Below, piece by piece: positions 15,841-43,130 of a DNA stretch of 58,568 nt. The position numbers were made by a program, and so were the translations under genes. Under the pieces are notes generated by a model. That model was given only the letters and a program-made list of their open reading frames with translations, made no database searches and was not told where the DNA came from. How positions within the stretch are numbered: the stretch's first letter is position 1; the number at the start of each line of letters is the position of its first letter. The stretch comes from Christensenellaceae bacterium (GTDB lineage Bacteria; Bacillota; Clostridia; Christensenellales; DTU072): positions 1 to 58,568 of the forward strand of contig JAITQU010000114.1 in NCBI GenBank assembly GCA_031288735.1, given 5' to 3'.

Positions 15841-15849
15841 AACATCAGG

Positions 15850-21987: not shown

Positions 21988-24900
21988 ATGATTTATTGTG
22001 ATTTGCGTGCACAAACAATAGACATACTACCGCTAACACAGTTGCAGCAAGAAATGTATGCCTCCATTTCACTTGGCCTCTGTGATTACAAGGAACAAAT
22101 ACATATTAATCTTAAACAAACTCCAGATTGTGATATTTTACGCCAAGCACTTGAAAATGTTGTTTCAAGTCAACCTGCATTGAGAAGTGTTTTTCGTCAA
22201 GTCACATCTAAAAAGCCTACACAGATTGTATTAAAGGATATAATACTTCCGTTTTATGTAGATTGCGATCCTCCTGAATTAGACGTAACTTCAGAACCTT
22301 GGAATCTATCGGTTAGTACAGCTAGAAACAGATTGTCTTTGCTGTATAACCATATTGTGATGGACGGTTGGAGTATGGCAATTTTATTTAAGCAGCTTTT
22401 TTCAGGATATGAAAGTATTTATTCTGGGGAAACATGGAATATTCAGTCCTCATCCACAATGCGAACACTTTTTTCCATACGAAAGAATAGAGATACTGCA
22501 AAAAATGAAGTGTTTTGGCGTGATATTCTTTCAAATTGTTACCCGACACTACTTAGCGACAATATTTGTTCTATAGACAGTTCGAAAGAAGAAAGTTATA
22601 AATGTTCTGTACCTCAAGAAATCACCCAAAAACTTTTCAATAAAGCAAAAGAGCTGTGCGTCACCCCATCAGTTTTGTTTTATGCAGTATGGGCAATATT
22701 GCTTGGTTCGTTTACAGGAAGTAAAAAAGTTTGTCTAGGTGTGTTACTTTCTGGTCGTGGGAATAAAAATGTTTCTTTTGACACAATTGGAATGTATGTT
22801 CAGTCTATTCCTCTTGTTACAAATCTCGAAGGTGATTTTTCAGACATTTGTCATGAAATTTCATGTTTTCTCAGATGTCCAGAAGTCAACGCTTTTGAAG
22901 CAGGTGAAGACGCACTTATTTCAAGCGGATTTTCACGTCGACAAGAATTATTTGACACATTGGTAGCAGTTGAAAATTATCCATTGGACGCAACGGAAAC
23001 GAGTTGGCAAGCTTTAAAAATCAATTCATATGACTATTATGAACGCCCTTCTTATCCCTTTACTTTGCAAATTCGAATGGGTAATACGACAGATCTGATG
23101 CTAACATCAACTAGAGATGAACTATTCGGCAATTTGAAGTTAGTTTTAAATTGTTATGAAGGCTTTTTACAGCAAATAGCAAATGGAGTTACAGAATTAT
23201 CTGAGCTGAAAATTTGTAATGTTTTCAACGAAGAAGGTTTTTCTATACCCTTCTCAACACCTTCTACTTTAGATAGTCTTATACGAGAAGGGTGTTTTAC
23301 TGGCGGTGACAAAATCGCGATTTCTGATGGTGATGAAACTTGGACGTACCAAGAACTTTTGGAACAGGCAGAATGTTGTGCAAAAGGGCTTGTATCACTT
23401 GGTGTAGTACCTGGTGACTCGGTTGGAATTTGCATGGAACGTAGTGCCAGACAGCTTATAGCTGTTTATGCAGTCATACTGGTTGGTGGGATTTATGTAC
23501 CATTTTCCGATTCTATCCCAGCAATCCGAGCGAATGATATGATAGTGCAAGCCGGTATACAGCGTGTAATTTGTCATACCTTACCTAATGATTGGCAAGT
23601 AGAACCTGTTTTGTTCGACGATTGCTTTAAGTATCCTGAAATACTCCTTCCAAATATTTCCAAAGATTCTAGTAGAACTGCATATATCCTGTTTACTTCT
23701 GGAACTACTGGTCGACCAAAGGGCTGTATGGTTAGCCATAATTCTTTATATAATCGATTACTTTGGAATTGCATACATTTAGGTTTAAGACCGGAAGAGC
23801 GGCAACTTTATAAAACACCTATAACATTCGATGTTTCTCTGATTGAAATTTTTTCAATCTTTGTAGGACGATTTACGCTTTACGTACTACCTCAGGGAAA
23901 CGAAAGCAGAGCAGATTGCCTTGTTGAAACCATTAAAAAAAATAAGATTACATATCTTCATTTTGTACCGTCTATGTTACATACTTTTTTAGGTTACCTA
24001 GACGCTTTTGAACAAGAAAAGTGTCTTGAAACAATTCGTATAATGGTTTGCAGTGGTGAAATTTTACCGTCATCTCTTGTAAAAAATCTTCTGCAGAGAA
24101 CAATTTGCAAAAATATGCAAATGTACAATCTTTATGGACCTACAGAAGCATCCGTTGATGTCAGTGTTCATTCCTGTACTGTAGATGAACTCTTGCCCGA
24201 AACGCCGATTGGTTTACCGATTTGGAACACCGGACTGCGGGTTTTGGATCTGTGGTATCGTTCATTACCCAATGGTATTTGCGGAGAACTGTATATTTTT
24301 GGCAGTAATTTAGGGCAGGGTTATGTAAATAACCTAGAGCAAACAGCAGCTAATTTTCTAATATTACCAGATGGAAAAAGAGCGTATCGTACTGGTGATA
24401 TTGCATATCGATTGCTGAATGAAGAACTTGTGTTGATTGGACGCCGAGACGATCAGATAAAATATAACGGTGTGCGTATCGAAATTTCTGAAATTTATGA
24501 AACAATGATGGAAAGTGGTATGGTTAAAGGAGCCGCCACTTTGCTTTATAAGGGAAATCCTGACCGTTTGATTGCTTTTTACGTTGGTGAAAAGGAAAAT
24601 GAACAAAATCTTCGTAAGTATTTGTCCAGTCGGATACCTTCTCATATGCTACCAAGCGACTATTGTAAAATTGACTCACTGCCCAAAACTGCCCATGGAA
24701 AGCTGGATAAAAACTATCTTTTAGAGCAATTTAACTTGCATAATCACTTAAGGAAAGAAATAAATTTTCAGTACAATGAAAACAATGAAATAGAACGTAG
24801 TGTAGCTGAAATTTGGTGTCAATTAATTGAAACAGATAGAAAATTTTTACCTGAAGATAATTTCTTTGCTTTTGGAGGAACATCACTCCTGCTAATTCGT

Positions 24901-27900
24901 ATGCAAATTGAAATCCGTAAGCGATGGAAAGTAGAACTTCCAGCGCATCTTATCTATAAATCTCCTCTTTTGGGACACATATGCAATTTAATTCAAACAG
25001 CTTATACCGGACAAGCTATACAAAAGGCAACAAAAAATTCTGTTTCTATATTAAATACCGCACAAGAGACTATTGCTAAATTTCAATTTTTAAATCCAAG
25101 CAACACGGCCTATAATATGCCCATTTGCTTCCGCCTTTTACCTTCTGTACGCGCTCAAGATGTTCTTGGGCATATTTCTCAAATGATAAAAGAGAATCAT
25201 TGGCTACGACTTACGGTTAAGTCTACAGAAAAAGGCCTTTTAGCAGACACAGTGGAATACACACAACCCCATTGGGAAGAATCTCATTGTACTTCGAGTG
25301 ATATTCTAGAGCGAATTTCCAGTTTTGTGCGTCCATTTTCACCTGACAAATTAATGATACGTGGTGCAATCCTTCGGTGTGAACAGGAAGAATATGTTTT
25401 ACTTGATTTGCATCATTTGCTGTGTGATCAGGCAGTTTCACAGTTTTTAGTTGAATCTTTACTTAATCGAATGGATGGAAATATTAAGCCGCTTGAAGTT
25501 CCTGTTTTTAAATCTGAAATGCTGCTATCAAGTGGCGACACTTCTCCTAAAATATTCCCAGCTACCAATGGAAAAGTTCTTGATCAAATCAAGACAAATC
25601 ACCCAAATCGACTCGGCCAACTAAAGAGAAAAGGTTTTTGCTTTTCTGTGAAAGAAAATCAGATGGTTTATGATGCTTGTGCACAATATGGCGTTAGCGC
25701 TTTTTTAGTATTATTTACAGGTTTTTTCATGTTTTCTTCTCGTATTGCTGATAGTAATAATTTAACAATAGGTACAAATACTACATCTGATACGCTGCAA
25801 TCTGCTGCTATGAGTCTACGTGTTTTACCGATACAAATGCAATTTAATTCTTCTGATACTTTTGAAACGTTACTTATGCAACTGAATAAAGCTTTTGCCA
25901 ATGCTTTAGCATACATGGAGGGTTTTAGTCTTGGACAATTTGATGTAATGTTTGTACGGGAAGAATCGCCCTTCAACAATGATAGATGGAAAAAATATTT
26001 CCATGAAGTTTCTTACATAAATACGACAAGCAAGTTGGGTTTGACTTTGTTTTACAAGGAAATAGGTAAAGGCTTTACTTTTTCTTTTGATTATGATGCA
26101 GGGCTGTTTGATTCACTAACAATACAGAATTTTGTAGAGAGTTACCGGTTTTTACTTTTCGAGGGATTAACCCATCCAAAACAATCTATATCTGAATTTC
26201 AAACTATGCCACAAGAACAGCAAATATCGCACACTAGTTGCCGTGGTTTAAGTACGCCCTTACCTAATCAAACTATTCAAACTATATTTTTGGATTGTTG
26301 TAAAAAAAATCCTAATGCAATCGCAATCTATGATAAAGAAAATTGGAGCTATCGAAAACTGTTAACGCTAGCATCAAAAATTGCTGCATCGCTTATTGAG
26401 CGTGAAGATATAGGTAATTTGATCGGAGTTCTACTGCCGCCCTCAGCAGAATATTTGGTTACTGTATTTGGCATTCTTCTTGCAGGAAAAGCATTTTTGC
26501 CTTTAGATATACAAAATCCAACTCAGCGAAATGCAGCGATTCTAAAGGATAGCGAAGTTATTTTGTGCGTAAGTAATCAAGGCATAAAATTCCATACTAT
26601 TTGTTGCCTTACCGTAGAAGAACTTTCTTCACATACATTGCCAGTACAATGCCAAGGGAATATGAATGATAACGTTTATTGTATTTACACTTCAGGTAGC
26701 ACAGGTAAACCAAAAGGTTGCGTGATAAGCCAAACAAATGCATTAAACTACCTGCAATGGGCAAACAGTTTCTACCTAAATAACAAAAAGGGATGTTTTG
26801 CATTTTTTACTTCACCTGCTTCGGATATGACCATTACCTCTACATTACTTCCTATAATGTTTGGACATAGTGTTGTTATATATCCGCAAAGCGCGCGGTC
26901 CATTTTAGATGCATCAAATGATGCTCGGGTCACAGTGCTAAAAGCAACCCCTAGTCATTTAAATTTAATCAGAGAAAAAAGAATGTCTTCGATTCAAACA
27001 ATAATTGTAGGCGGAGAGCAACTTACAAGTGCTCTTGCCGCAAATTTATCTAGTCTTTGGAAAAGTCCGCCAGATATATATAATGAATACGGACCAACTG
27101 AGTCAACAGTAGGTTGTATGATTTACAAATATAACCCAAAAGATCCTTGGGCAGCAGTTCCTATTGGTACCGCAATTGACAATATGCAGATATCTATTTT
27201 AGATAGCAAGGAGCGTCCTTGCATACCAGGTGTTTCTGGGGAACTTGTTTTACAAGGTCGAAGTGTTATAGCTGGATACCTTAATCAATCAACTAATACT
27301 GAAGAACGGTTTGCTCAGTTGTTAGATGGTACTTGGCAATACAAAACGGGTGATTTTGCTCATATGTGTGCCGATGGACGGATTATTTATGAATCCAGGA
27401 GGGACAATCAATTTCAGTTAAGCGGATATCGTGTGGAATTGGGTGAAATTGAACAGGTTGCAAAAGAGACTGGAGGCATTGAAGAAGCTTGTGCAATAAT
27501 CCATGAAAATCAAGAAGGCAATAGTAGACTTATACTTTATTGTGTGACTAACTCTACAGAATATCGTGATGAAGTTCAACTCAGAAAGATACTATTTCAA
27601 AAAGTACCTCGCTATATGATTCCTGGCCAAATCGTGTTTTTGGAGCATCTCCCGCTAACTTCTAGTGGAAAAATTGATCGTAATATTCTTATTAAGAACA
27701 CAGTTATAGAAGGGATGCCATCGGATAATACTGTCCGTTTTTTAAGTACTTGTTGGAGAAAAATTCTTGGAAACTCTAATTTTACTCTCAATGATGGTTT
27801 TATGGAAGCTGGAGGCAATAGCCTTTCTATTGTTGCCCTCCAACAAGAAATTTCCGTACAATATCCAGAAATTACCGTAGAGAATTTATTTTGCTATCCA

Positions 27901-30900
27901 TCTATTAATGCTCTTGCGAAATATCTTGAAAACAATGGTCAAAAGCAAAATATAGTCAATGAAGCGTACAGGGGAGAAATCGTCATAACAGGTGTGGCTT
28001 TTTCTCTGTGTGGTGCGGCAGATTTGCTTTCACTAAGAAACGTTTTTTCGTCTCAATACAGTCAGATTGGCTACCCTAATTCTCGTCGCCGCAAAGATAC
28101 CAAAACAGCGCTTTTAAATATGGGAATGCAAGATAAACTCTACCGTTTTGGTATGGCGGCGTACCTAAGCGATATTGATTTGTTTGATAATGATTATTTT
28201 CGTATTGGAAAAGATGAAGCAAATGCGATGGACCCCGCGCACAAGTTATTGCTAACTATAGCAGATCGCGCTTTTACCGATGCAAATTTTGGACACGATT
28301 TTAACGGAAAAAATAGTGCAGTAGTTTTTGGAGCACCAGAGAATATTGGATATCAAGATTACGTTACTCGTTGTTACCCGAATCTAAGTCGTGCTGCTAT
28401 GCTAAACCGAGTTGGTTCCAGCATAGTCGGTAGAATACAGCATTTTTACAATCTGACAGGTCCGGCTTATCTTATAGATAGTGCATGTTCATCAGGACTT
28501 TCTGCTCTTTATAACGCTTGCGCTATGATACGTGCTGGAGATTGCGATTCAGCCCTTGTTGGTGGAGTTAATTTGTTAAACCCACTGGATATTTCTGGAG
28601 AACAAAAACCAGAAATTCTTTCTCATCGTCATCATGCTAATACTTTTGCAGCAATAGCAGACGGTACGGCAAGAGGAGAAGGTTGTATCTGTTTGGTTTT
28701 AGAAAAGAAAGAAGATGTCGAACGAGCAAATCGAACATTTTATGCCGAGGTAATAGGTGGTGCCACTAATAACGATGGATTTTCAGCCAGCGTCACAGCA
28801 CCAAACGGTAGTGCACAAGTTCATCTTATTCGATCTGCTATGAAAAATGCTGCTATTAAGCCATCGGATTTTGGTCTCATAGAAACTCATGGAACTGCTA
28901 CCCAGTTAGGAGACAGTGTGGAACTTAAGGCTCTTGGTGATGTGTTTTCAGAAAGAATAGGGCGAGGCAAATGTGCTTTAAGTGCGGCAAAAACAGTATA
29001 TGGCCATTTGGATTCAGTTTCAGGGTTGCTGGGTGTGATAAAAACTATTCTTTCTTTATACTATCGTGAACTTTATCATTTTATTGGTGTAGACATTCCA
29101 ACTGAGCGGTTTGACTTTATCGAGTCACATTTTTATATGCCAGATCAAGTAATACCTTTTCCTAAAAACTGTAGTGATGATCACATTTGTGGTATTAGTA
29201 GTTTTGGCCTTAGTGGTACCAATGTACATATGATTTTACGACAAGGGAATCGTACGTCTGAGGAAAAAGTAAAAGTGCAACAACATCAGAAATTAAAACG
29301 TTGCTGGTTACCAGATGAGCCAGAACATCGATTTGTAGGAGATAAAGTCCAAGGGAAGACACAAATTCAAACGAGGCAAACTTGTGAAGAAATTGATAGG
29401 GAACTGTCTGAAAAAGTGGCTCAACTTAATAAAGTAAATGAAGTTTCTTACAATATGCCTTTTTATGAAATGGGTTTTGATTCGGTTTCTATAGTTCAAC
29501 TTCGAATTTTTATTCAGTCAAATTATGGATTTGAGTTACCTGTTTCGCCACAAGACACTATTTCTTCAATTGCCGATGAAGTTTTTCGAAAATCAGAAAA
29601 GAATCCATCTGAGTCAAAAAAGCGGCAGCACAAGAATAAAGTGATTACATCGGTACTAAACACAATGTTTTATGAAAATTGGGAAGACTACCAATTTCGT
29701 GTATTGGTATCTGATTTTGCTAGAGATTATGTCAAAAAAACTCGCCTTTCGCGGGAGCGAATGTTGGATGAAAAGTTAGAGTGGGCAAATGGACGATTTA
29801 TTACTGGTCAGACAAAAGGGCTCGATGAGCTTTCTTACCCCATTATAGCAAGTAGAGGCATGGGGTCTGAGATGTGGGACATTGATGGAAATTACTATAT
29901 TGACTATGCTATGGGGTTTGGTGTCCATTTTTTTGGATACAATCATCCTAAAATTGAAAGTGCTGTTGTCAAGGAAATGCAAAACGGCCCAGTGTTAGGA
30001 GCATTGATGAATACTCCATTTCAAGTAGCAGAAAAAATTAGCAATTTAACAGGAATTGAACGAGTATCTTTTTGTAGTTCTGGGACAGAAGCGATGATGA
30101 ATTTACTACGAATTGCTCGAGCTGTCACGAGTCGTAATTGTGTTGTGATGTTTGAGGGATCTTTTCATGGAAGCTTTGATCCGTTGTTTGTCATGAAAAA
30201 TGAATTAGATGATTCCTTTCATCCGCTACCCCGCAGCATGGGTACACCAATAAGCTATATGGACGATATTGTCATGCTACCATACGGTGACGACGTTGCA
30301 TTAGAATATATCAGAAATCATGGAAGCGAATTAGCCGCTGTACTGGTAGAGCCGGTTCAAAGTAGAAATCCTGCACTACGTCCGGCAAAATTTTTACACA
30401 CATTACGCAAAATCACACAAGAAAACGGAATTCTGCTAATTTTTGATGAAGTTATTACTGGTTTTCGAAGTGGTACAGCGGGTGCTCAGGGTTATTATGG
30501 TGTACAGGCCGATTTGGTTGCCTATGGAAAGATAATTGGCGGTGGTTATCCCATAGGTGTGTTTGGCGGAATGGCACGTTACATGGACCTTTTGGATCAT
30601 CGAGGCAGTTTGAGGCCGACAGGCGCTGGTCATACTTTAGTTGGAAATGGCGGCACATTTCACGCCCATCCTACCAGTATGGCAGCAGCTTCAAAGGTAC
30701 TTGATATATTTGAAAAAGACGGAGAATCCTTATGTGCTGAAGCTAATGCAAAAACCGAACATCTAGCTATACGGCTCAACGAATTTTTATTGCGTGAAAA
30801 AACTGGAATACAGATAGAGCATTTTTGTTCTCAGTTTATCTTTACAGGTGGAGAAGCAAGAGCACTTCGACTACTACAATATTTATTGATTTATAATGGA

Positions 30901-32304
30901 ATTTACGTTTGGGAGGGAGGCACCTGCTTTGTTTCTACAGAACACACCTGGGATCAGATACATACTTTTGTAGATACAGTAAAACGTTGTGTTGAAAAAA
31001 TGAGACAAATGCTATCACAGGTGTCGTCGTTTTCTACCCGTTTGGTAAAAGGCTTATCACAAAGAGATTACTCTCGCATAGAACAATTTGTGTCAAAGTA
31101 CGATTTAGATGAAATTGAATCGATAGATGCAAAAGCAGCCGCTTTGCTTGCCAATAATGTAGCACAAAGAAACCAGGGTGGGGATGTATCTATCATTCGC
31201 ATAAACATAAAACGTAAAATCGAAATGGCGAATGTTCAACTATGTATGAACCGCATTATCAACTCTAGCCGTCAACTACGTAGTGCTTTGAGTTGGAGGC
31301 GGCTTGAACGCCCAATTCAAATGGTTTTCCGAAAGGCTCATTGTGAGGTTAATGCATTGCAAACAAATCAGGCAGATCTAGAACTCCTCATAAGTCATAC
31401 AATAGAAAAGCGTCAAAGAAGTGGATTCCAAATAGAGCATGCACCACTAGTCGGGGTAGACATTTTTAATGTTTCTAACGGTGAAACTGAATTTTTGTTA
31501 TCGTTTTATAATGGATGGATAGACGGATGGAGTGCCGATTTATTGCTTCGTCATTTACTGAGTCTCTTAAATAATGAGCAAACTGATTTAGTCGAGGTAG
31601 ATTGGCAAAATTTCAAGCAGTGGGAAAAAAAGCAGACCCCTCAGGCCAAATCTTATTGGAAGGATGCTCTGAGTCACTTCAGCCCAAGGCCCCAATATAA
31701 CCTTGTCGAAGGCACATGGCAAGAATATACGCTACAGATCGAAGAAAAATTAGCGCATATAATAAAAAAATTTGCTTCTAAACATCGAATTTCAGAGGCA
31801 TCAGTTTATTTGTGCGTTATGGCGCGCTCTATGGGACAATCTTGGATTATGACCACGATTTCTGGCCGAAACGCACCTGTCCCAGGTTTGTGGAATACAA
31901 TTGGAAATTTTGCATCGCTTGCACCTATACATATTCCACAATTGGATCATGTAGATCAAGCAATTACAGTAAACACTAGTGTTGAGATTCTTTCACAGCT
32001 TCCAACTTGTGACTTGGAAACCATCCAGCAATATGCTGGATTCGATTTAGGAGCTTTGGATGCTTTAGTTCAAGCACATACTCTTGTTATTTTGAATCAA
32101 GTAGAGGATAGGCATTACAATACTGACGCTTCTATCCGAGAAGACCGCAGCTACATTCGAGTTCCATGCCGTTACTATATTACGCCAGGTGAAAAGCTTT
32201 TAATCACGTATCACACAGGGTATATTTCTTGTGAAAATGTAGCAAAAATAGTGCAGTGTTTTGTCGAACAAATCGAAGAATATGCTGTGGAGGAAACTTT
32301 ATGA
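21988..32304 (+). CDS. Hybrid NRPS / trans-AT PKS megasynthase: C-A(Ser-like)-T-C-A(Asn-like)-T-KS-ACP-aminotransferase-degenerate C
   Basis: Motifs with nt positions follow. C1 has NHIVMDGWS (22348-22374). A1 has TSGTTGRPKG (23695-), LYGPTE, YRTGD and GKLDKN. T1 has FGGTS with the Ser codon at 24883. C2 has HHLLCD (25411-25428). A2 has YTSGSTGKPKG (26686-), NEYGPTE, YKTGD and GKIDRN. T2 has GGNS with Ser at 27820. KS has DSACSSG with Cys at 28486, plus HGTATQLGD and GHLDSVSG, and no AT domain follows it. ACP has GFDS with Ser at 29482. The class III aminotransferase has SGTEAMM, FDEVITGFR and YGKIIGGG with Lys at 30529. The C-terminal C-like domain reads YNGWIDGWS (31507-31533). An AAAGGGG RBS precedes ATG 21988; the ORF-track start at 21964 is a TTG. 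Confidence 0.93.
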   Translation: MIYCDLRAQTIDILPLTQLQQEMYASISLGLCDYKEQIHINLKQTPDCDILRQALENVVSSQPALRSVFRQVTSKKPTQIVLKDIILPFYVDCDPPELDVTSEPWNLSVSTARNRLSLLYNHIVMDGWSMAILFKQLFSGYESIYSGETWNIQSSSTMRTLFSIRKNRDTAKNEVFWRDILSNCYPTLLSDNICSIDSSKEESYKCSVPQEITQKLFNKAKELCVTPSVLFYAVWAILLGSFTGSKKVCLGVLLSGRGNKNVSFDTIGMYVQSIPLVTNLEGDFSDICHEISCFLRCPEVNAFEAGEDALISSGFSRRQELFDTLVAVENYPLDATETSWQALKINSYDYYERPSYPFTLQIRMGNTTDLMLTSTRDELFGNLKLVLNCYEGFLQQIANGVTELSELKICNVFNEEGFSIPFSTPSTLDSLIREGCFTGGDKIAISDGDETWTYQELLEQAECCAKGLVSLGVVPGDSVGICMERSARQLIAVYAVILVGGIYVPFSDSIPAIRANDMIVQAGIQRVICHTLPNDWQVEPVLFDDCFKYPEILLPNISKDSSRTAYILFTSGTTGRPKGCMVSHNSLYNRLLWNCIHLGLRPEERQLYKTPITFDVSLIEIFSIFVGRFTLYVLPQGNESRADCLVETIKKNKITYLHFVPSMLHTFLGYLDAFEQEKCLETIRIMVCSGEILPSSLVKNLLQRTICKNMQMYNLYGPTEASVDVSVHSCTVDELLPETPIGLPIWNTGLRVLDLWYRSLPNGICGELYIFGSNLGQGYVNNLEQTAANFLILPDGKRAYRTGDIAYRLLNEELVLIGRRDDQIKYNGVRIEISEIYETMMESGMVKGAATLLYKGNPDRLIAFYVGEKENEQNLRKYLSSRIPSHMLPSDYCKIDSLPKTAHGKLDKNYLLEQFNLHNHLRKEINFQYNENNEIERSVAEIWCQLIETDRKFLPEDNFFAFGGTSLLLIRMQIEIRKRWKVELPAHLIYKSPLLGHICNLIQTAYTGQAIQKATKNSVSILNTAQETIAKFQFLNPSNTAYNMPICFRLLPSVRAQDVLGHISQMIKENHWLRLTVKSTEKGLLADTVEYTQPHWEESHCTSSDILERISSFVRPFSPDKLMIRGAILRCEQEEYVLLDLHHLLCDQAVSQFLVESLLNRMDGNIKPLEVPVFKSEMLLSSGDTSPKIFPATNGKVLDQIKTNHPNRLGQLKRKGFCFSVKENQMVYDACAQYGVSAFLVLFTGFFMFSSRIADSNNLTIGTNTTSDTLQSAAMSLRVLPIQMQFNSSDTFETLLMQLNKAFANALAYMEGFSLGQFDVMFVREESPFNNDRWKKYFHEVSYINTTSKLGLTLFYKEIGKGFTFSFDYDAGLFDSLTIQNFVESYRFLLFEGLTHPKQSISEFQTMPQEQQISHTSCRGLSTPLPNQTIQTIFLDCCKKNPNAIAIYDKENWSYRKLLTLASKIAASLIEREDIGNLIGVLLPPSAEYLVTVFGILLAGKAFLPLDIQNPTQRNAAILKDSEVILCVSNQGIKFHTICCLTVEELSSHTLPVQCQGNMNDNVYCIYTSGSTGKPKGCVISQTNALNYLQWANSFYLNNKKGCFAFFTSPASDMTITSTLLPIMFGHSVVIYPQSARSILDASNDARVTVLKATPSHLNLIREKRMSSIQTIIVGGEQLTSALAANLSSLWKSPPDIYNEYGPTESTVGCMIYKYNPKDPWAAVPIGTAIDNMQISILDSKERPCIPGVSGELVLQGRSVIAGYLNQSTNTEERFAQLLDGTWQYKTGDFAHMCADGRIIYESRRDNQFQLSGYRVELGEIEQVAKETGGIEEACAIIHENQEGNSRLILYCVTNSTEYRDEVQLRKILFQKVPRYMIPGQIVFLEHLPLTSSGKIDRNILIKNTVIEGMPSDNTVRFLSTCWRKILGNSNFTLNDGFMEAGGNSLSIVALQQEISVQYPEITVENLFCYPSINALAKYLENNGQKQNIVNEAYRGEIVITGVAFSLCGAADLLSLRNVFSSQYSQIGYPNSRRRKDTKTALLNMGMQDKLYRFGMAAYLSDIDLFDNDYFRIGKDEANAMDPAHKLLLTIADRAFTDANFGHDFNGKNSAVVFGAPENIGYQDYVTRCYPNLSRAAMLNRVGSSIVGRIQHFYNLTGPAYLIDSACSSGLSALYNACAMIRAGDCDSALVGGVNLLNPLDISGEQKPEILSHRHHANTFAAIADGTARGEGCICLVLEKKEDVERANRTFYAEVIGGATNNDGFSASVTAPNGSAQVHLIRSAMKNAAIKPSDFGLIETHGTATQLGDSVELKALGDVFSERIGRGKCALSAAKTVYGHLDSVSGLLGVIKTILSLYYRELYHFIGVDIPTERFDFIESHFYMPDQVIPFPKNCSDDHICGISSFGLSGTNVHMILRQGNRTSEEKVKVQQHQKLKRCWLPDEPEHRFVGDKVQGKTQIQTRQTCEEIDRELSEKVAQLNKVNEVSYNMPFYEMGFDSVSIVQLRIFIQSNYGFELPVSPQDTISSIADEVFRKSEKNPSESKKRQHKNKVITSVLNTMFYENWEDYQFRVLVSDFARDYVKKTRLSRERMLDEKLEWANGRFITGQTKGLDELSYPIIASRGMGSEMWDIDGNYYIDYAMGFGVHFFGYNHPKIESAVVKEMQNGPVLGALMNTPFQVAEKISNLTGIERVSFCSSGTEAMMNLLRIARAVTSRNCVVMFEGSFHGSFDPLFVMKNELDDSFHPLPRSMGTPISYMDDIVMLPYGDDVALEYIRNHGSELAAVLVEPVQSRNPALRPAKFLHTLRKITQENGILLIFDEVITGFRSGTAGAQGYYGVQADLVAYGKIIGGGYPIGVFGGMARYMDLLDHRGSLRPTGAGHTLVGNGGTFHAHPTSMAAASKVLDIFEKDGESLCAEANAKTEHLAIRLNEFLLREKTGIQIEHFCSQFIFTGGEARALRLLQYLLIYNGIYVWEGGTCFVSTEHTWDQIHTFVDTVKRCVEKMRQMLSQVSSFSTRLVKGLSQRDYSRIEQFVSKYDLDEIESIDAKAAALLANNVAQRNQGGDVSIIRINIKRKIEMANVQLCMNRIINSSRQLRSALSWRRLERPIQMVFRKAHCEVNALQTNQADLELLISHTIEKRQRSGFQIEHAPLVGVDIFNVSNGETEFLLSFYNGWIDGWSADLLLRHLLSLLNNEQTDLVEVDWQNFKQWEKKQTPQAKSYWKDALSHFSPRPQYNLVEGTWQEYTLQIEEKLAHIIKKFASKHRISEASVYLCVMARSMGQSWIMTTISGRNAPVPGLWNTIGNFASLAPIHIPQLDHVDQAITVNTSVEILSQLPTCDLETIQQYAGFDLGALDALVQAHTLVILNQVEDRHYNTDASIREDRSYIRVPCRYYITPGEKLLITYHTGYISCENVAKIVQCFVEQIEEYAVEETL
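27975..29250 (+). other. Ketosynthase domain of the megasynthase (no cognate AT in cis)
   Basis: The domain starts at EIVITGVAF. It carries DSACSSGLSALYNA (active Cys), ETHGTATQLGD and YGHLDSVSGL, and ends at SGTNVHMILRQ. The next recognisable domain is the ACP. Confidence 0.85.
29750..31010 (+). other. Integrated PLP-dependent aminotransferase (AMT) domain, class III / GSA-aminomutase-like
   Basis: The motifs DIDGNYYIDYAMGFGVHFFGYNHP, SGTEAMMNLLRIARA, LIFDEVITGFRSG and AYGKIIGGGYPIGVFGG are present. The KS-ACP-AMT arrangement matches that of the iturin/mycosubtilin and microcystin synthases. Confidence 0.8.
31050..32301 (+). other. C-terminal condensation-like domain lacking both His of the HHxxxDG motif
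   Basis: The domain is about 420 aa and resembles C domains overall (LRSALSWRRLERPIQMVF...). The active-site motif reads Y-N-G-W-I-D-G-W-S, so the catalytic second His is Asn. Confidence 0.65.
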
Positions 32305-33335
32305 AGACCCCATGCTATGTCATTGTATCTGAGATACTAAAAAGTAATCTAGAACAAATGAAAAAACGGATGGCTCCATGCAACATTTTTTATTCAATGA
32401 AATCCAATCCAACCAATGTTGTTGCCAGCGTTTTGTCTGAGATGGATTGTGGATTTGAGGTTTCTAGCTTAGCTGAGGCACAAATTTTAAATAATTTACA
32501 GGTTGGAGAAAAAAGAATTTATTGCGGTCTTCCTGTTTTGACTAATGAACAAGTTATGATTTTTTTAGAATTTGGGTGTAAGCGGTTCGTTTACGATACA
32601 ATACGTCAAATGAAACGCCTAGTTTGTTTTGCACCAAATACACAAAAAGTTTTACGACTTACAGTAGATGATCTTTCTCCTGGTGCGATTGGATTTGGCG
32701 TGTCTATCGCGGAACTTGAAGCTAATCCTGAATTATTAACGGAAGCTGACGGAATGAGCTTTCACATTAGTAACCATAGTGAAATAAACCAAACTTTGCT
32801 TGCATTGGACCGAGTAGAGCAGTTAATGATAACTACCCCGAAAATAAGGCTTCTAAATATTGGTGGTAGCTATACGCTTACAGGGCAGGAAGAAGATTAT
32901 GAATCACTGCGTCTTCGGTTGTATGCGCTAATGCGGCAACACAATCTTACGCTAATGTGCGAACTAGGTTCTGCCATTGTTAACACTGCAGGAAATGTAT
33001 TGACTCGTTGTGTTATGGTACGAGATAGGGGTGGTTTTACCGACGTGTTTTTGGACGCAGGGGTACCAGCTGGCGTTATGCGATCGCCAAAAAAATTATA
33101 CAATCTTTCACAGCCGAACCCATTACATAGGCATTTTTATCGTTTTTTTGATACTACTAGCATGCGCCAACTATTATTTCAAATGCATATAAAACAAAAT
33201 ATTTCAGAAGGAGATTTGCTAAAGCTTACTGATTACGGTGCATATTCGTTTTGCTACAGTAATCGTTTCCACTCTCAACCAATGCCAGAAATCTTTTTAT
33301 TTCAGGAGGAACAAGAATTTGAAAAATTGGTATGA
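32301..33335 (+). CDS. Fold-type III PLP-dependent decarboxylase (Orn/DAP/Arg decarboxylase family; BtrK/NspC-like size)
   Basis: The PLP-Lys context is FYSMKSNP. NIGGSY, ELGSAIV and the C-terminal DYGAYSFCYSNRFHSQPMPE are also present. ATG 32301 overlaps the megasynthase stop (ATGA) and follows GGAGGA at 32289-32294; the ORF-track start at 32256 is upstream. Confidence 0.7.
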   Translation: MKTPCYVIVSEILKSNLEQMKKRMAPCNIFYSMKSNPTNVVASVLSEMDCGFEVSSLAEAQILNNLQVGEKRIYCGLPVLTNEQVMIFLEFGCKRFVYDTIRQMKRLVCFAPNTQKVLRLTVDDLSPGAIGFGVSIAELEANPELLTEADGMSFHISNHSEINQTLLALDRVEQLMITTPKIRLLNIGGSYTLTGQEEDYESLRLRLYALMRQHNLTLMCELGSAIVNTAGNVLTRCVMVRDRGGFTDVFLDAGVPAGVMRSPKKLYNLSQPNPLHRHFYRFFDTTSMRQLLFQMHIKQNISEGDLLKLTDYGAYSFCYSNRFHSQPMPEIFLFQEEQEFEKLV

Positions 33336-33336
33336 A

Positions 33337-34653
33337 ATGTTTTGTCAAAACAGTTTGCAAAACGGCGCATTTGATTACACTTCGTTGGTTTCTCAGAGCG
33401 ACAGTATATCGGATGGGATTAATCATCTTGGAACTCCCGAACTTTACAGAAAACTTATTGCAGAAGAAATTATGCAAGGAATACGCATTAGTGGATATTC
33501 TCAATCCTCTGGGCACCCCTTGTTAACTTATGGTATTGGGATGTATGAACGAATACTTGCTGGAGAAGAGCCTGAAAACTCATGTTTTTGTGCACATGTA
33601 TGTGTAACGGTGGGAGCCACAGCCGCTATTAAGAGCTTGTTTTCTTATTTTGCTGAAGGAAAGGGGATTAATGATGTTATGTGTCTAGGCATGAACTATT
33701 ACCTATTTGCTGTGTGTGCGCAACGATATAATATGCGCTTATCCAATTTACTCGGAGAACACACAATTGCACCCAACTTGCAGCAAATTGTGTGTGAAAT
33801 TCCAAAACATAAAGGAGGATTGCTTATTCTGACGCAACCTATGAATCCGTCAGGTGAGCAATACTGTGAATCAGAACTCATACAAATTTTTTCAATGTGC
33901 AAAAACTACGATTATACAGTTATTTTGGACCTTTGTCAGATGGATGAGCTGAATCCATATGGCACTGAGGTAAATATTGGGCGAGCGATACTTACGTCTG
34001 GAGCAGAAAATACAGTAGTGATTGTTAATAGCTTTTCTAAAATTCGCAGTCTTGCTGGAATGAGATTGGGTTATCTAGCTACAAACGATAAAAAATTAGC
34101 TAAATATGCTACATACCTAAACGAAATCAATAGTTTTAATCATACCCTTGGATGTGAAAATGCAGTAATTGTTGATTTGTTTTATCGAACCATTTTACGT
34201 AGTGTTGAAGCAAGCCATAAATCAACCGTGCGACTTTTTAGGAACTTAATTTTGCAAACAGCCGGAGAATCCATCTATCAGCGAGTATTTAGAAAACTCT
34301 TGAAAAGTGAATCCCTGTTTGAGGATGCAACGAATTTCCAAAAAGAGATTGCATCTCAATGGAAAATTGTTAGAAAAAATTATGAATTTTGCAAACAGAA
34401 ACTTCTTTTAGGCACAGCGTCACGAATCACTCCCTTAAGCGGAGGCTATAATTTCTGTGTTCGTTTTCCATTATCACTGGGACAGAGTGAGACCGAATGG
34501 GCGCAGATGATAGGACGTTCTATTGGATCCAATGTGTTAACACAGCAAAATTTCTGTGTTAAAATGGAAAAAAATTCGAAGAATGTTTGGCTTAGACTAA
34601 GTGCAGCAATGGAATCAAATCGTTTTCAGGGCTATATTTCAAAATTAGTATAA
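33337..34653 (+). CDS. Class I/II (fold-type I) PLP-dependent aminotransferase
   Basis: TQPMNPSGEQY (the NPxG motif) and NSFSKIRSLAGMRLGY (the SxSK PLP lysine) are present. ATG 33337 lies 1 nt after the decarboxylase stop; the ORF-track start at 33238 overlaps the previous gene. Confidence 0.8.
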   Translation: MFCQNSLQNGAFDYTSLVSQSDSISDGINHLGTPELYRKLIAEEIMQGIRISGYSQSSGHPLLTYGIGMYERILAGEEPENSCFCAHVCVTVGATAAIKSLFSYFAEGKGINDVMCLGMNYYLFAVCAQRYNMRLSNLLGEHTIAPNLQQIVCEIPKHKGGLLILTQPMNPSGEQYCESELIQIFSMCKNYDYTVILDLCQMDELNPYGTEVNIGRAILTSGAENTVVIVNSFSKIRSLAGMRLGYLATNDKKLAKYATYLNEINSFNHTLGCENAVIVDLFYRTILRSVEASHKSTVRLFRNLILQTAGESIYQRVFRKLLKSESLFEDATNFQKEIASQWKIVRKNYEFCKQKLLLGTASRITPLSGGYNFCVRFPLSLGQSETEWAQMIGRSIGSNVLTQQNFCVKMEKNSKNVWLRLSAAMESNRFQGYISKLV

Positions 34654-34669: not shown

Positions 34670-34924
34670 ATGGAAATTAAAAATAGAATTATCAATGTAC
34701 TCAATAACGTACTCGGTCGGGAAGTCACAATAACCCAATTACTAGAAGGAGGTATTTATTCCCTAGGAATTCATTCTCTTGTATTCTTAAAAATTGTTGT
34801 TGGTATAGAGGAGGAATTTGATATTATGTTTGATGACAATGAAATTAATTATGAAATGTTTAGAACGTTTGAAGATTTTTGCGATTTGATTGAGCGTAAA
34901 ACTAAGGAGGGGGACTATAAATGA
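34670..34924 (+). CDS. Free-standing carrier protein (ACP/PCP-like) 1
   Basis: The protein is 84 aa, acidic and helical, with the Ser motif GIHSLVFLKIVVGIEEEFD in the carrier-protein position. A GGAG RBS is present. Confidence 0.65.
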   Translation: MEIKNRIINVLNNVLGREVTITQLLEGGIYSLGIHSLVFLKIVVGIEEEFDIMFDDNEINYEMFRTFEDFCDLIERKTKEGDYK

Positions 34925-35166
34925 ATAATGTGGAGTTAATACACAAAGTCAAGGGCCTATTGCGGGAGAAGAGTAGATATAAAGGCGAAATAGACATGGA
35001 TCATTCTCTAGCAGGCATGCTTAATTCCATTACCTACATCCAGTTTCTTATTGCATGCGAGGATGCGTTTGAAATCGAAATAGAAGATGGTGAATTAGGC
35101 ATGACTAATTTTTCCACTTTTCAAGATATGGTTGATTTTCTAACAAAAAAAGTGTATCAATCATGA
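34921..35166 (+). CDS. Free-standing carrier protein (ACP/PCP-like) 2
   Basis: The protein is 81 aa, with the motif GMLNSITYIQFLIACEDAFE in the equivalent position. The start overlaps the previous gene (ATGA). Confidence 0.6.
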   Translation: MNNVELIHKVKGLLREKSRYKGEIDMDHSLAGMLNSITYIQFLIACEDAFEIEIEDGELGMTNFSTFQDMVDFLTKKVYQS

Positions 35167-36386
35167 ATGTGGTATTATTGCTTGAAGGACAGGGTAGTTA
35201 CTCTACCGAAAAAACTAAACAGCTAATTCAACATGATTCAAACGCATCTGCGTTATGGAAAAATGCTGACAAAATTCTTGGATGGAGTATTAGCGATCTT
35301 GTACATAAAAACGAACATACAGGAATGCTGGAAACGGATCTTGCTCAACCGATGATTTTTTTAATGGAGTATACGGCGTGGCATTGTGCGAAAAACACCT
35401 TGCCAGAAGCTCCAAACTGTGTTGTCGGACATAGCTTGGGGGAGATTACTGCTTTGGCAGCAGCAGAGGTTTTATGTTTTGAAGATGCCCTTCTTTTGAC
35501 AGCTCGGCGTGGTGAGGTTATGCAGAAATTTACATCAAAAGAGCCTCAAGGAATGGCTGCACTTATTGGGGCTAGCTCTGCAGAAGCGGAGCAGCTATGT
35601 AAGCAGGTGTCTCAAGAGCTTGATTTAGTTTTGACTTGTGCAAATTACAATTCTCCATCGCAAATCGTAATTTCAGGGTACCGAAAGGCGTTGGAACGAG
35701 CTGCTGAACTTACCACGAGTGTACTAAAGCCACTGCAGGTTACGCGGGCATTTCATACACCGCTGATGAAGTTTGCAGCAGATGTAATGGATGAGGCAAT
35801 GTCAAAATTAAAATTTTATCCATCTAAAATTCCAGTTATATCTGGAGTAACAGCAAGACCGTATCCAGCATCATGGACTGTTCGTCATTTACTAAAGAAA
35901 CAAATTACAAGTCCTGTGCGCTGGACTGAAATCATGAACTATCTTCAGGAAAAAGGCTTTACTACTTTTTTGCAAACATCGGAGCGTACATTATTTCGAG
36001 ATATGAACCCGGAATTAAGAGATGTCGTTTGCTGGGGTAGCCTAGAGCAGTGGAGCAATGGAGAATTATACAATTTTGATAATCTTTTTCGAAAAGGGAG
36101 TTCAGTATTGTTTGCCGTTGGCGTCTTAAGTGATTGTCTACGAAAAATGATTGCAAATCCGTGGCCAGAAAATATAGCTAGTGAAGACGTGAAACAGGCA
36201 CAGGGTTGCTATCATACGGTCTTGGATATTTGGAAAAAACAGGCAAGCGAGCCTACCCAGAGAGAAGTCGGTTTGGCGCTGAAGAATCTTAGCAAAGTTT
36301 TAACTATAAAAAAAATCGACTCAAAAACCAAATCGGAACAAATTGAGAATATTTTAGAAAAATATGGCATCAAAGGGATGTATTGA
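35163..36386 (+). CDS. Free-standing FabD-like acyltransferase (trans-AT) with about 110-aa C-terminal extension
   Basis: LLEGQGSY, the active site GHSLGEITA and RAFHTPLM are present. The FabD-like core covers about 290 aa and is followed by a helical extension of unknown function. The start overlaps carrier protein 2 (ATGA). Confidence 0.85.
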   Translation: MNVVLLLEGQGSYSTEKTKQLIQHDSNASALWKNADKILGWSISDLVHKNEHTGMLETDLAQPMIFLMEYTAWHCAKNTLPEAPNCVVGHSLGEITALAAAEVLCFEDALLLTARRGEVMQKFTSKEPQGMAALIGASSAEAEQLCKQVSQELDLVLTCANYNSPSQIVISGYRKALERAAELTTSVLKPLQVTRAFHTPLMKFAADVMDEAMSKLKFYPSKIPVISGVTARPYPASWTVRHLLKKQITSPVRWTEIMNYLQEKGFTTFLQTSERTLFRDMNPELRDVVCWGSLEQWSNGELYNFDNLFRKGSSVLFAVGVLSDCLRKMIANPWPENIASEDVKQAQGCYHTVLDIWKKQASEPTQREVGLALKNLSKVLTIKKIDSKTKSEQIENILEKYGIKGMY

Positions 36387-36390
36387 GAAC

Positions 36391-41471: not shown

Positions 41472-43130
41472 ATGCATATAGGATTGATGGGGAACTCTTT
41501 ACGCCCAATGATTCAGCAAGGAACGGTTTATGGATATGACATCGCAGCAAATGAACTAATTGATAGTATTTTTCGCTACAGCAATGCAGATCGTATAACC
41601 TGTCTTTATGAACCAGAACAATTTCAGCAAGAACTTTTAATGCGCAAAAAAAACAAAGTGCTTCGCAAACAGGAAACAGAAAAAGAAATTTCGCTGCTGA
41701 GCGAATATGATCTTCTATTTCATTCAGACAAGACTAAGATGTTGGATATGGAGATACTTCATAATGTGAGTAGTGAGTTTTCTCCTCTTTTAGCGCTGCG
41801 TGAGGTTATTGGTCGCCCCATTCCAATAACTTTTACTATCCATTGTGCTAGTTATCCTCAGCTTTTGAATAACTTCTTTCTTCCGATGAGCATGATGTGC
41901 TTTAAATCGTATGACGCACTGATTTGCACTTCAGCAGCGGTTCGCTTAACGGTTGAAAAAATTTTGAAACGTACTAGAGAATATTCGGGTAAGGGAAATC
42001 AATTGAGATTAGAACAAATCCCTCTAGGTGTGGATACCAACCGGTTTGCTCCTGGAAGACGATTTGAAGCCAGAGAAAAATATAATATTCCTAAAGATGC
42101 TTTTGTAATCCTTTGGCTTGGACGTATTTCCGCTTGTGATAAAGCAGATTTATGTCCACTTTTGCAGGTTGTCGCAAAGCTGATTCGAAAAAATCCAAAT
42201 AAACAAATCCGTTTAGTCATTGCAGGATACCAGCCCGAAGGGACATCGTATTTGCAGGCGCTACAAGGGCTGACACGTACACTTGAGGTGAGCGAAGAAA
42301 CCATTTTTTTTGACAGACATGATATTTCTACACGTAGCGATTTATACGCGCTTAGTGATGTGTTTACTTCTCCAGTGGACAACGTACAAGAAACTTTTGG
42401 TATTACTCCTATCGAGGCGATGTCTTGTGGTGTTCCTCAAGTAGTAAGCGATTGGAATGGGTATCGAGATACTGTGGTGGATAAAGTTACTGGTTTTCGT
42501 ATACCAACATATTGGTGTAAATGTGATGAAGATTTGTGCTTATTAGGGGAATTGCCATCGGATCAGCAACACCGAAGCCAACTTCATCATTATTTACTTA
42601 GCCAGACAGTTGCAATAGATCCAAACGCATATTTAGCAGCATTTCAGACACTTTTAGATAATGAAGATTTACGGCGAAAGATGTCAGAAGCTTCTCGCTC
42701 AGAGGCACTTAAGCGGTTTGACTGGAAAAATGTTATTTCAGCGTACGATATTCTTTGGAAAGATTTATCGAAACAAGCAACTACTTCCAAAGAAAGCTTT
42801 AATCCTGATAAGCTTCTTTTACCAAATTATTGTGAAGATTTCGCTTCATATCCTACTTCTTTTTTAGGAGAAAATGTTCCTTTTTCCCGAATTAATGGTA
42901 AAAAAGCAATGCTTAAAGATTCTCATCATGCTCCGTATGGCGTGGAGTCTATTTTGTTTCCAAATGAATTGCTAGATCAAATTTTGATTCGCCTGTCTCA
43001 AAGCTTGTGTACTATGAAAGAGTTTTGTGCGGAACATCCTACGCAGCCTCAGGCACAAATTCGTAGAAGTTTTATGTTTTTATGTAAATATGGGATGATT
43101 TGTCCATATCTCGAAACAAAAGGTAGGTAA
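41472..43130 (+). CDS. GT-B fold glycosyltransferase (GT4-like)
   Basis: The C-terminal Rossmann half carries ILWLGRISACDKAD. It also carries the EX7E-type motif ETFGITPIEAMSCGVPQVVSDWNGYRDTVVDKVTGF. Confidence 0.8.
   Translation: MHIGLMGNSLRPMIQQGTVYGYDIAANELIDSIFRYSNADRITCLYEPEQFQQELLMRKKNKVLRKQETEKEISLLSEYDLLFHSDKTKMLDMEILHNVSSEFSPLLALREVIGRPIPITFTIHCASYPQLLNNFFLPMSMMCFKSYDALICTSAAVRLTVEKILKRTREYSGKGNQLRLEQIPLGVDTNRFAPGRRFEAREKYNIPKDAFVILWLGRISACDKADLCPLLQVVAKLIRKNPNKQIRLVIAGYQPEGTSYLQALQGLTRTLEVSEETIFFDRHDISTRSDLYALSDVFTSPVDNVQETFGITPIEAMSCGVPQVVSDWNGYRDTVVDKVTGFRIPTYWCKCDEDLCLLGELPSDQQHRSQLHHYLLSQTVAIDPNAYLAAFQTLLDNEDLRRKMSEASRSEALKRFDWKNVISAYDILWKDLSKQATTSKESFNPDKLLLPNYCEDFASYPTSFLGENVPFSRINGKKAMLKDSHHAPYGVESILFPNELLDQILIRLSQSLCTMKEFCAEHPTQPQAQIRRSFMFLCKYGMICPYLETKGR

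Follow-up and report, generated by a model that had tools for sequence, protein, structure and literature searches.

The contig JAITQU010000114.1 of a Christensenellaceae bacterium (assembly GCA_031288735.1), analysed here over 58,568 nucleotides and referred to as the window, carries a gene for a large hybrid of a nonribosomal peptide synthetase (NRPS) with a polyketide synthase (PKS), the megasynthase with which this study is concerned. Its open reading frame (ORF) spans positions 21988-32304 of the forward strand (10.3 kb), from an ATG at 21988 to the stop codon at 32302-32304; a TTG in the same frame is found at 21964. Translation from the ATG yields 3,438 residues that are identical to NCBI entry MDR3185966.1, filed as 'MAG: Christensenellaceae bacterium' (MAG, metagenome-assembled genome). 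An earlier note, made from the sequence alone, had read the protein as a succession of condensation (C), adenylation (A), thiolation (T), ketosynthase (KS), acyl carrier protein (ACP) and aminotransferase (AMT) domains in the order C-A-T-C-A-T-KS-ACP-AMT-C*, the asterisk marking an aberrant terminal C domain, and a Pfam search combined with motif inspection bears out this order. Pfam matches comprise AMP-binding (8.8e-128, two stretches), Condensation (2e-70, five stretches), PP-binding (2.4e-23, three stretches), ketoacyl-synt (1.7e-43), Ketoacyl-synt_C (8.8e-29) and Aminotran_3 (3.7e-50); Acyl_transf_1 has no match within the ORF. The serines of all three carrier domains are in place. The Pfam and motif matches of the megasynthase, and those of a free acyltransferase (AT) described below, lie far beyond chance. 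The domains are as follows, with the evidence for each in brackets.

21988..23283, + strand: C1, condensation domain of the DCL type, which joins a D-configured donor to an L-configured acceptor; motif NHIVMDGWS, N-terminus ILPLTQLQQEM (hidden Markov models, HMMs, and PDB neighbours)
23284..24777, + strand: A1, adenylation domain, code DVIHVSLVDK, Ser-like (Pfam, GrsA alignment, PDB relatives)
24802..24993, + strand: T1, carrier domain, GGTSL (Pfam, serine motif)
25018..26307, + strand: C2, divergent condensation domain of the LCL type, for an L-configured donor; motif HHLLCDQ (HMMs, LCL 55 versus DCL 16.5 bits)
26308..27702, + strand: A2, adenylation domain, code DMTKIGEVGK, Asn-like (Pfam, GrsA alignment)
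27730..27942, + strand: T2, carrier domain, GGNSL (Pfam, serine motif)
27976..29295, + strand: KS with Cys, His and His intact, no AT after it and a short linker to the ACP (Pfam, motifs)
29380..29607, + strand: ACP, GFDSV (Pfam, serine motif)
29695..31005, + strand: AMT, MycA-type class III aminotransferase dependent on pyridoxal phosphate (PLP), lysine in AYGKIIGGG (Pfam; PDB 6KFM, E 7e-106)
31018..32304, + strand: C*, terminal DCL-derived condensation-like domain, YNGWIDGWS (motif, HMMs)

How widespread is this arrangement? Six other full-length proteins share the same ten-domain order, one of them 68% and five 38-41% identical to the megasynthase, and all were recovered from metagenome assemblies. 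When 1.84 billion cluster representatives were searched exhaustively with a profile, only a few further members came to light. Species-representative genomes, 185,579 in number, were scanned twice for patterns and returned no family member; there, a profile of the epimerization (E) domain described below found nothing and a profile of C* found one weak fragment in Saprospiraceae. Megablast of the megasynthase ORF against plasmids gave no match. In the literature we found no description of the cluster, of a Christensenellaceae NRPS-PKS, or of an N-acyl-D-Asn prodrug strategy combined with on-line beta-amination of a peptidyl ketide.

Ten-residue specificity codes of the adenylation domains were read from a MAFFT alignment to a fragment of GrsA-PheA; as a control, this fragment gives the canonical DAWTIAAICK at positions 235-517. 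The motifs from which the codes had been extracted by hand all occur in the ORF (FDVSLIE, YLHFVPS, MVCSGE and NLYGPTEASVD for A1; SDMTITS, VLKATPS, IIVGGE and NEYGPTESTVG for A2), and the alignment returns the same letters, DVIHVSLVDK for A1 and DMTKIGEVGK for A2. The proposed Asn-like nature of A2 holds: its code fits DLTK[L/I]GEVGK, the reference for Asn both here and in the partner protein discussed below, and an Asn-like code is found at the same site in relatives. Across the seven orthologous sequences A2 reads D[M/I]TKIGEV[G/A]K and A1 reads DV[I/V]H[V/I]SLVDK, the latter pattern being present in 11 of 11 readable A1 domains (the seven orthologues and four 50%-cluster representatives). 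Three other architectures that likewise end in KS-ACP-AMT-C* place two A domains before the KS, with the codes DVWHFSLIEK and DLTKIGEVGK in P0225, DVIHISLVDK and DMTKIGEVGK in P0241, and DVIHFSLVDK and DLTKIGEVGK in locus L010; P0224, too, has DLTKIGEVGK at the position equivalent to A2.

For A1, Ser is the probable substrate. Against a Ser reference of DVWH[F/L/V]SL[V/I]DK, eight of the ten positions equal the EntF code quoted in the earlier note, among them His278, Ser301 and Asp331, but Trp-239, at the floor of the pocket, is replaced by Ile or Val in all eleven readable A1 domains. The pocket should therefore be larger, and A1 could favour another small polar residue: might it load Thr, homoserine or 2,3-diaminopropionate instead of Ser? 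We consider this unlikely. In P0225, the only relative architecture to keep Trp-239, the homologous A domain reads DVWHFSLIEK, so that the canonical version occupies the A1-equivalent position in the same Ser-Asn-KS-ACP-AMT-C* context. The solved relatives point the same way: behind the top PDB chains, LgrA and 8xjz, each with two A domains and a total summed over two stretches, rank Txo2 (274 bits; the Ser7 module) and the Ser-activating EntF (259 bits), as against 182 bits for GrsA.

The first condensation domain is of the DCL type by two lines of evidence, and not of the starter or LCL type. PDB condensation domains can be assigned to DCL or LCL from textbook knowledge of their pathways, and the best matches of C1 are domains that accept D-aminoacyl donors, namely McyB (1.2e-25), TycB module 1 (1e-18), the C domain that follows E in BacC (1.1e-18) and SrfA-C (1.1e-13); LCL entries match at 6e-6 to 4e-3 (the fuscachelin PCP-C didomain, TycC6 and LgrA). 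Reference HMMs were built from position-labelled domains of 113 unrelated NRPSs, with C domains 480-640 residues after an A domain (T-E-C) as the DCL set (n=50), C domains 60-150 residues after an A domain as the LCL set (n=230), and the domain between an A domain and a following DCL domain as the E set (n=50); on held-out sequences these position-defined models were correct in 65 of 66 cases. C1 scores 203 bits with the DCL and 115 bits with the LCL model, in the same direction as in four orthologues. C2 is LCL (55 versus 16.5 bits), and C* scores as DCL (95 versus 63 bits).

Which enzyme could supply the D-configured donor that a DCL domain expects? Downstream of the megasynthase gene lies a second NRPS, which had been described as a C-A-T-E protein:

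36364..40452, + strand: initiating NRPS, 1,362 residues (Pfam, profile, codes)
36364-37683, + strand: its starter-like C domain (best PDB match 7C1H)
~37735-39108, + strand: its A domain, code DLTKIGEIGK, Asn-like (GrsA alignment)
39160-39345, + strand: its T domain (domain annotation)
39346-40449, + strand: its divergent E domain (five-sequence profile against PDB, motifs)

The searches confirm this reading. The C domain is closest to 7C1H over its full length (2e-19), the lipo-initiation starter domain of rhizomide synthesis, and also matches the CDA starter C domain (3e-12). The code of the A domain, DLTKIGEIGK, is invariant in five loci. A five-sequence profile of the C-terminal 365 residues matches E domains exclusively in the PDB (BacC E at 1e-10, then PvdL, GrsA, TycB and TycA), and the motifs HHILxDGVSW, DCNGR (EGHGRE-like), NIGCYS and INYLGN can be recognised; as a single sequence the region is uninformative on the reference HMMs, with about 13-14 bits for E and for DCL and 7 bits for LCL. 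The C-A-T-E protein of locus L010 has a canonical E domain that scores 161 bits on the E model. Since the partner holds the sole E domain of the cluster, no other enzyme could provide C1 with the D-configured donor that it expects.

These features bear directly on the order of assembly. In the window and in all other loci the C-A-T-E gene lies downstream of the megasynthase gene, and a colinear reading would have the megasynthase act first and the C-A-T-E protein add a C-terminal D-Asn. We regard that order as highly improbable: C1 calls for a D-configured donor and the cluster offers no other E domain, the partner C domain is starter-like, C* lacks its catalytic His, and a ClbP-like peptidase encoded nearby fits an N-terminal acyl-D-Asn. 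The suggestion that gene order departs from assembly order is thus upheld, and non-colinear initiation with N-acyl-D-Asn is well supported.

The KS retains its Cys, His and His in the motifs DSACSSG, ETHGTAT and YGHLD, as had been reported, and the three residues are invariant in the seven orthologues. It is not followed by an AT, and the free enzyme on which it was said to depend is a genuine one (Acyl_transf_1 at 4.1e-28, fabD model at 2e-63):

35163..36386, + strand: discrete FabD-like acyltransferase, presumed trans-AT for the KS module (Pfam, fabD model, malonyl-type motifs)

Its motifs are of the malonyl type (GQGS, GHSLGE, an Arg, and xAFH). A second, housekeeping FabD is encoded at 7441-8415. 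When all retrieved KS domains were ranked per domain, 38 of the 40 next-best had no cis AT within 650 residues downstream. The PDB neighbours of the KS mix cis-AT and trans-AT enzymes and form no clean clade (MAS, CurL, Pks13, PksL and ClbC, all at 185-207 bits). From the KS Cys to the ACP Ser there are about 330 residues in the megasynthase versus about 470 in P0121, a stand-alone relative introduced below, and P0001 gave no match to a RhiE-like or CurL-like linker.

The aminotransferase is of class III and MycA-like, in agreement with the earlier proposal: 6KFM is its best solved relative (E 7e-106, 358 bits, about 440 residues), and glutamate-1-semialdehyde aminomutases follow well behind at 1e-55. 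The PLP-binding lysine (YGKxxGGG) is kept in seven sequences, and the domain stands directly after the ACP of the KS module. The AMT of MycA moves an amine from Gln to an ACP-bound beta-keto thioester (PMC3870968). By analogy, the AMT of the megasynthase would replace the beta-keto group of the thioester on the ACP by a beta-amine.

A search for KS-ACP-AMT brought up stand-alone, AT-less KS-ACP-AMT-C proteins, P0121 and P0122 from metagenomes and P0123-P0127 from Flavobacteriaceae and Kordia. P0121 and P0122 show the same change of His to Asn as C* (LNSLFDGWS), whereas the versions from Flavobacteriaceae and Kordia keep HH. P0122, which belongs to L010, is found on 26 contigs, and two loci, L009:915-20395 and L010:1-24887, represent this sister family. 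L010 opens with a C-A-T-E protein, and the part of L009 that was read opens with a decarboxylase of the Orn/diaminopimelate (DAP)/Arg type. Both continue with a C-A-T protein (its C domain DCL in L010), a second, more distant carbamoyltransferase, KS-ACP-C and KS-ACP-AMT-C*; after C* follow a carrier 38-45% identical to CP1, a free carrier protein of the window, and an AT about 30% identical to that of the window. A glycosyltransferase of family GT4 that is 40-42% identical to the window's occurs in both loci, and a carbamoyltransferase 53% identical to the window's in L009 only. The last protein of either locus is C-A-T-C-A-T; codes were read only for the L010 copy, where they are Ser-like and Asn-like, and after this copy L010 encodes a GNAT acetyltransferase. 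These shared features indicate that the end of the line is alike in both families, namely Ser, Asn, KS-ACP-AMT-C* and then CP1. Ser-Asn-KS-ACP-AMT-C* was thus seen in four or more architectures, of which one occurs on 26 contigs, and this recurrence suggests a conserved pharmacophore.

The most unusual part of the megasynthase is C*. Where the active-site motif HHxxxDG is expected it reads YNGWIDGWS, the catalytic His being replaced by Asn, and the asterisk is therefore justified. The form [Y/F][N/T]xWxDGWS is found in the seven orthologues, in 50%-cluster representatives and in three other architectures, and a canonical HHxxxDG with its second His is absent from every C* checked. A remote trace of the motif, the Saprospiraceae match of the genome scans, lies at the end of a MAG contig (L008:9666-9818), where a [Y/F]NxWxDGW fragment shows 35% identity over 47 residues. 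Identity among the seven orthologues is 28-61% for C*, 31-68% for C1 and 23-62% for C2; C* is no less conserved than the other two condensation domains, which makes the missing His an old and maintained feature rather than a sign of decay. Histidine-less C* domains were seen in 16 of 24 AMT-bearing proteins, of at least four architectures, and in all 16 the domain ends the protein directly after the AMT. In each family the score of C* is that of a DCL domain. By the same models, C domains that follow an AMT and have the canonical motif are LCL-like (P0075, P0124); they are either internal, as in MycA-like proteins, or terminal, as in the Flavobacterial type. An AlphaFold2 model of C* from a five-sequence alignment reached a mean pLDDT (predicted local distance difference test) of 61 and was not used for a fold search.

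What might such a domain do? Most likely, C* would condense the chain forward, the acceptor being either bound to CP1 or a free amine from a Lys/Orn-type decarboxylase encoded in the cluster; we rank a scaffold or docking role second and acylation of the beta-amine on its own ACP third. In the last case the donor would be a second acyl-D-Asn, supplied by the initiating NRPS, or a CP1-bound acyl group and the intermediate branched or doubly capped. This would explain a DCL-derived terminal C domain without a downstream module, and it draws on the contrast in subtype with the LCL-like canonical domains, on the invariable position of C* at the protein end with no A-T module beyond it, and on the carriers, a CP1 homologue following C* in L009 and L010, and the window family having its CP1 gene at another place in the cluster. 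Set against it are the missing catalytic His, the fact that position-defined HMMs do not report function, and a low-confidence model that gave nothing usable; we think acylation of the own amine improbable. It is also conceivable, although we would not bet on it, that C* and its dedicated carrier CP1 form a new functional class of condensation-like domain, with a reaction so far foreign to the logic of assembly lines; candidate reactions would be acylation of the beta-amine (a branch or second prodrug cap) or a carrier-to-carrier hand-off for aminolytic release of the BtrH type.

Is the acyl-D-Asn a removable cap? The cluster encodes a putative maturation peptidase:

43130..44341, + strand: S12 peptidase resembling ClbP, transmembrane region at the C-terminus, no signal peptide (PDB search, alignment, hydropathy)

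ClbP is its top PDB match (1.2e-25), and S34, K37 and Y127 are the equivalents of S95, K98 and Y186 of ClbP. Prodrug peptidases are marked by Ser or Thr at position 188, where other S12 enzymes have Asn, by a strictly conserved N331 and by His or Asn at position 257 (Velilla et al., PMC9889268). T129 of the window enzyme, at position 188, fits this signature, and N331 has an equivalent; the residue aligned with position 257 is Phe. A hydropathy scan shows two long C-terminal hydrophobic segments, which we read by eye as three helices. Neither this peptidase nor P0169, its only close orthologue (59%), has an N-terminal signal or anchor; in both, no more than about 33 residues precede SxxK, and some 60 N-terminal residues are missing. 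More distant relatives, P0170-P0178 (28-36% identity), do possess an N-terminal signal or anchor as well as C-terminal transmembrane helices, and the next-best homologues, P0170 and P0171, sit outside NRPS clusters. One could read these last findings, together with Phe at position 257, to mean that the S12 protein is cytoplasmic or serves another role, that acyl-D-Asn stays in place, and that the mature product is an N-acyl-D-Asn lipopeptide. We hold this to be doubtful, as ClbP is the best solved relative, the equivalents of Thr188 and N331 set prodrug peptidases apart from other S12 enzymes, and the gene belongs to a cluster with a starter C-A(Asn)-T-E module. A peptidase gene beside such a module is the very pairing by which prodrug peptidases are recognised (PMC9889268). 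On the side of the synthetases the prodrug logic is well supported.

The remaining genes of the cluster, all on the forward strand, are listed here with the evidence where it was recorded.

18222-18965, + strand: SpoU-family RNA 2'-O-methyltransferase
18966-19670, + strand: Sfp-type phosphopantetheinyl transferase
19671-20369, + strand: type II thioesterase
32301..33335, + strand: PLP-dependent decarboxylase of the Lys/Orn/DAP type (Pfam, models, PDB)
33355..34653, + strand: enzyme of the class I/II PLP aminotransferase fold (Pfam, models)
34670..34924, + strand: CP1, free carrier protein, 38-45% identical to the carrier after C* in L009 and L010
34921..35166, + strand: CP2, second free carrier protein
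40473-41468, + strand: BtrH-like protein
41472-43130, + strand: GT4 glycosyltransferase
44345-45319, + strand: BtrH/C39-like protein
45323-47242, + strand: carbamoyltransferase
47279-48031, + strand: S-adenosylmethionine (SAM) dependent methyltransferase
48102-49631, + strand: B12-radical SAM enzyme

The gene set recurs in the loci L002, L003/L004, L005, L006 and L007, in partly shuffled order, and comprises the phosphopantetheinyl transferase, type II thioesterase, an optional SpoU methyltransferase, the megasynthase, the Orn/DAP-fold decarboxylase, the class I/II aminotransferase, two free carriers, the AT, the initiating NRPS, a BtrH-like protein, the GT4 and the B12-radical SAM enzyme; the group of SpoU methyltransferase, phosphopantetheinyl transferase and type II thioesterase is kept in L002, L006 and L007. 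No type I thioesterase was found in the cluster. Aminolytic release from a carrier protein could fall to the two candidate proteins of the BtrH_N family, although they match that family weakly (27.8 and 32.9 bits, the cut-off being 29.7 bits), and PHROGs gave no match for the BtrH-like and unknown proteins. BtrH_N is fused to a metagenomic PKS in P0140, which fits an off-loading role. A BtrK-like identity of the decarboxylase was considered and found unsupported, its best solved relative being the Lys/Orn decarboxylase 5GJM, with no BtrK entry among the matches. The SpoU-family enzyme has weak matches to NshR/TsnR and RlmB, which hints at self-protection of RNA or ribosome and would fit a ribosomal target. 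GT4 and carbamoyltransferase together suggest a carbamoylated sugar.

The surroundings of the cluster are those of an anaerobe. Both flanks consist of anaerobe housekeeping genes: on the left (369-14748) ClpB, acetate kinase, plsX-fabH-fabD-fabG-fabF, RNase III, and Bcd with EtfB/EtfA, the EtfA carrying a ferredoxin domain; on the right (49737-58310) a TIGR04100 radical SAM protein, a GT2 glycosyltransferase, an ABC exporter and AdhE. A zwittermicin cluster of Bacillus, which low GC content together with acyl-D-Asn logic might suggest, was rejected in view of these flanks and of the Christensenellaceae MAG protein. The flanks have a GC content of 0.30-0.34, and over about 22-49.6 kb it climbs to 0.37-0.40, which suggests an acquired island. 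At the left edge, 14750-18220, lie 3.5 kb without an intact gene, with strong purine skew and insertion-sequence remnants, namely a piece of an rve_3 integrase core (16626-16814) and a Transposase_mut gene of the IS256 type in three broken frames (17035-17836). Between the type II thioesterase and the megasynthase a gap of 1.6 kb (20370-21960) holds pieces of a group II intron (+ strand) without an ORF; RF01999 (D1-D4) matches above the gathering threshold at 21081-21199, and matches of the domain V/VI type at 21508-21688 fall below it. In L007, the locus of the 68% orthologue, the thioesterase gene abuts the megasynthase gene, which marks this gap as an insertion inside the operon.

Taken together, the megasynthase is probably the central enzyme of a non-colinear hybrid NRPS/trans-AT-PKS pathway of the N-acyl-D-Asn prodrug type. 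In the scheme that we favour, the initiating NRPS would make N-acyl-D-Asn-S-T, and the DCL-type C1 would take this D-configured donor and couple it to Ser loaded by A1. C2 would add Asn loaded by A2, the AT-less KS would extend the peptidyl chain by one malonyl unit, with the discrete FabD-like AT loading the ACP, and the AMT would turn the beta-keto thioester into a beta-amine at C-3. The predicted ACP-bound intermediate is acyl-D-Asn-Ser-Asn-psi[CH(NH2)CH2CO]-S-ACP. C*, CP1, the two BtrH-like homologues of acyl-carrier:amine transferases and the Lys/Orn-type decarboxylase would then most likely hand the chain over to an amine acceptor or modify it; tailoring would fall to GT4, carbamoyltransferase and methyltransferases, and the ClbP-like peptidase would remove acyl-D-Asn. 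Domain identities, catalytic residues, specificity codes and C-domain subtypes, with their conservation, were established here; the substrates and the order of action up to the AMT step are inferred from these tested features, and the release chemistry and the product are more conjectural. The chain put forward in the earlier note, acyl-D-Asn-Ser-Asn-(C2, beta-amino), is consistent with the domain features, and none of the substrate codes, the KS or C1 contradicts it.

Several observations pull in the other direction and temper our confidence in this pathway. The C-terminal 365 residues of the initiating NRPS are so divergent that Pfam, and phmmer against the PDB, returned nothing for them, and this E domain has Asp at the equivalent of the catalytic Glu. 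The linker between KS and ACP is very short and without a recognisable flanking subdomain. To these add the widened pocket of A1, the loss of the catalytic His from C* in all members, and the shortened N-terminus and Phe257 of the peptidase.

What would follow if the pathway is as proposed? As the family is seen only in metagenome assemblies, its product would belong to the dark-matter chemistry of uncultured, probably anaerobic Firmicutes. Should C* indeed represent a new class, the Ser-Asn-(beta-amino C2) unit, the GT4 and the carbamoyltransferase shared with L009 would define an unseen family of prodrug antibiotics from uncultured anaerobes, perhaps with the ribosome as their target. That a terminal C domain has consistently lost its catalytic His is a directly testable question of enzymology, and with the predicted intermediate, heterologous expression has a definite mass and structure to search for. 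We see in this cluster a solid lead for genome mining with one genuinely odd domain; it overturns nothing established.

How does the cluster compare with known systems? The stand-alone KS-ACP-AMT-C proteins, all uncharacterised, share the four-domain cassette of the window. In the loci of P0121 and P0122 a CP1 homologue, a trans-AT and a GT4 come after it, but the modules for Ser and Asn reside on a protein of their own, and there are additional KS-ACP-C and C-A-T proteins. As in butirosin biosynthesis (BtrI ACP, BtrK decarboxylase, BtrH transferase), free carriers, an Orn/DAP-fold decarboxylase and two BtrH_N proteins are clustered in the window; unlike there, no ATP-grasp BtrJ is found and the BtrH_N matches are weak, so that the resemblance is a lead and not membership. 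MycA (mycosubtilin) and ItuA, of the order KS-AT-ACP-AMT-C, likewise have the AMT between the ACP of a KS module and a C domain, but the MycA module has a cis AT whereas the window KS module is AT-less, and MycA acts on a fatty acyl chain whereas the window enzyme is predicted to act on a peptidyl chain. In the MycA-like P0075 the post-AMT C domain has a canonical HHxxxDG, is LCL-like and is followed by A-T modules, in contrast to the terminal, histidine-less C*.

In zwittermicin biosynthesis Ser directly follows D-Asn and a carbamoyltransferase is used, and several N-acyl-D-Asn prodrug antibiotics inhibit translation. Among the pathways of zwittermicin, paenilamicin, edeine, amicoumacin/xenocoumacin and rhabdobranin we know of none with an integrated PLP aminotransferase after an AT-less KS-ACP and, to our knowledge, none has a histidine-less terminal C domain or BtrH-like genes. 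A GNAT acetyltransferase resistance gene is absent from the window and present once in the sister locus L010. The N-acyl-D-Asn prodrug logic itself is common to the zwittermicin A, paenilamicin, edeine, amicoumacin/xenocoumacin and rhabdobranin pathways and the window (PMC9889268, PMC13564427).

A parallel to the initiation and maturation genes is colibactin (ClbN C-A-T-E, ClbB, ClbP). There, too, a starter C-A(Asn)-T-E resides on its own protein, and the next synthase is an NRPS-PKS hybrid that opens with a C domain for N-acyl-D-Asn (PMC8264950). Both systems have an S12 peptidase with the Ser/Lys/Tyr triad, Asn331, Ser or Thr at position 188 and a C-terminal transmembrane region, of three helices in ClbP (PMC9889268). 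The window differs in its highly divergent E domain, in a peptidase with Phe257 and without a signal peptide, and in a downstream chemistry (Ser-Asn, AT-less KS, AMT, C*) that is unrelated. Prodrug initiation of the ClbN/ClbP type, the MycA-type AMT and the trans-AT KS are thus known pieces, and the apparent deviations from known families are the AT-less KS-ACP-AMT predicted to act on a peptidyl chain, the conserved histidine-less and DCL-derived terminal C domain, the signal-less ClbP-like peptidase and the putative BtrH-like genes.

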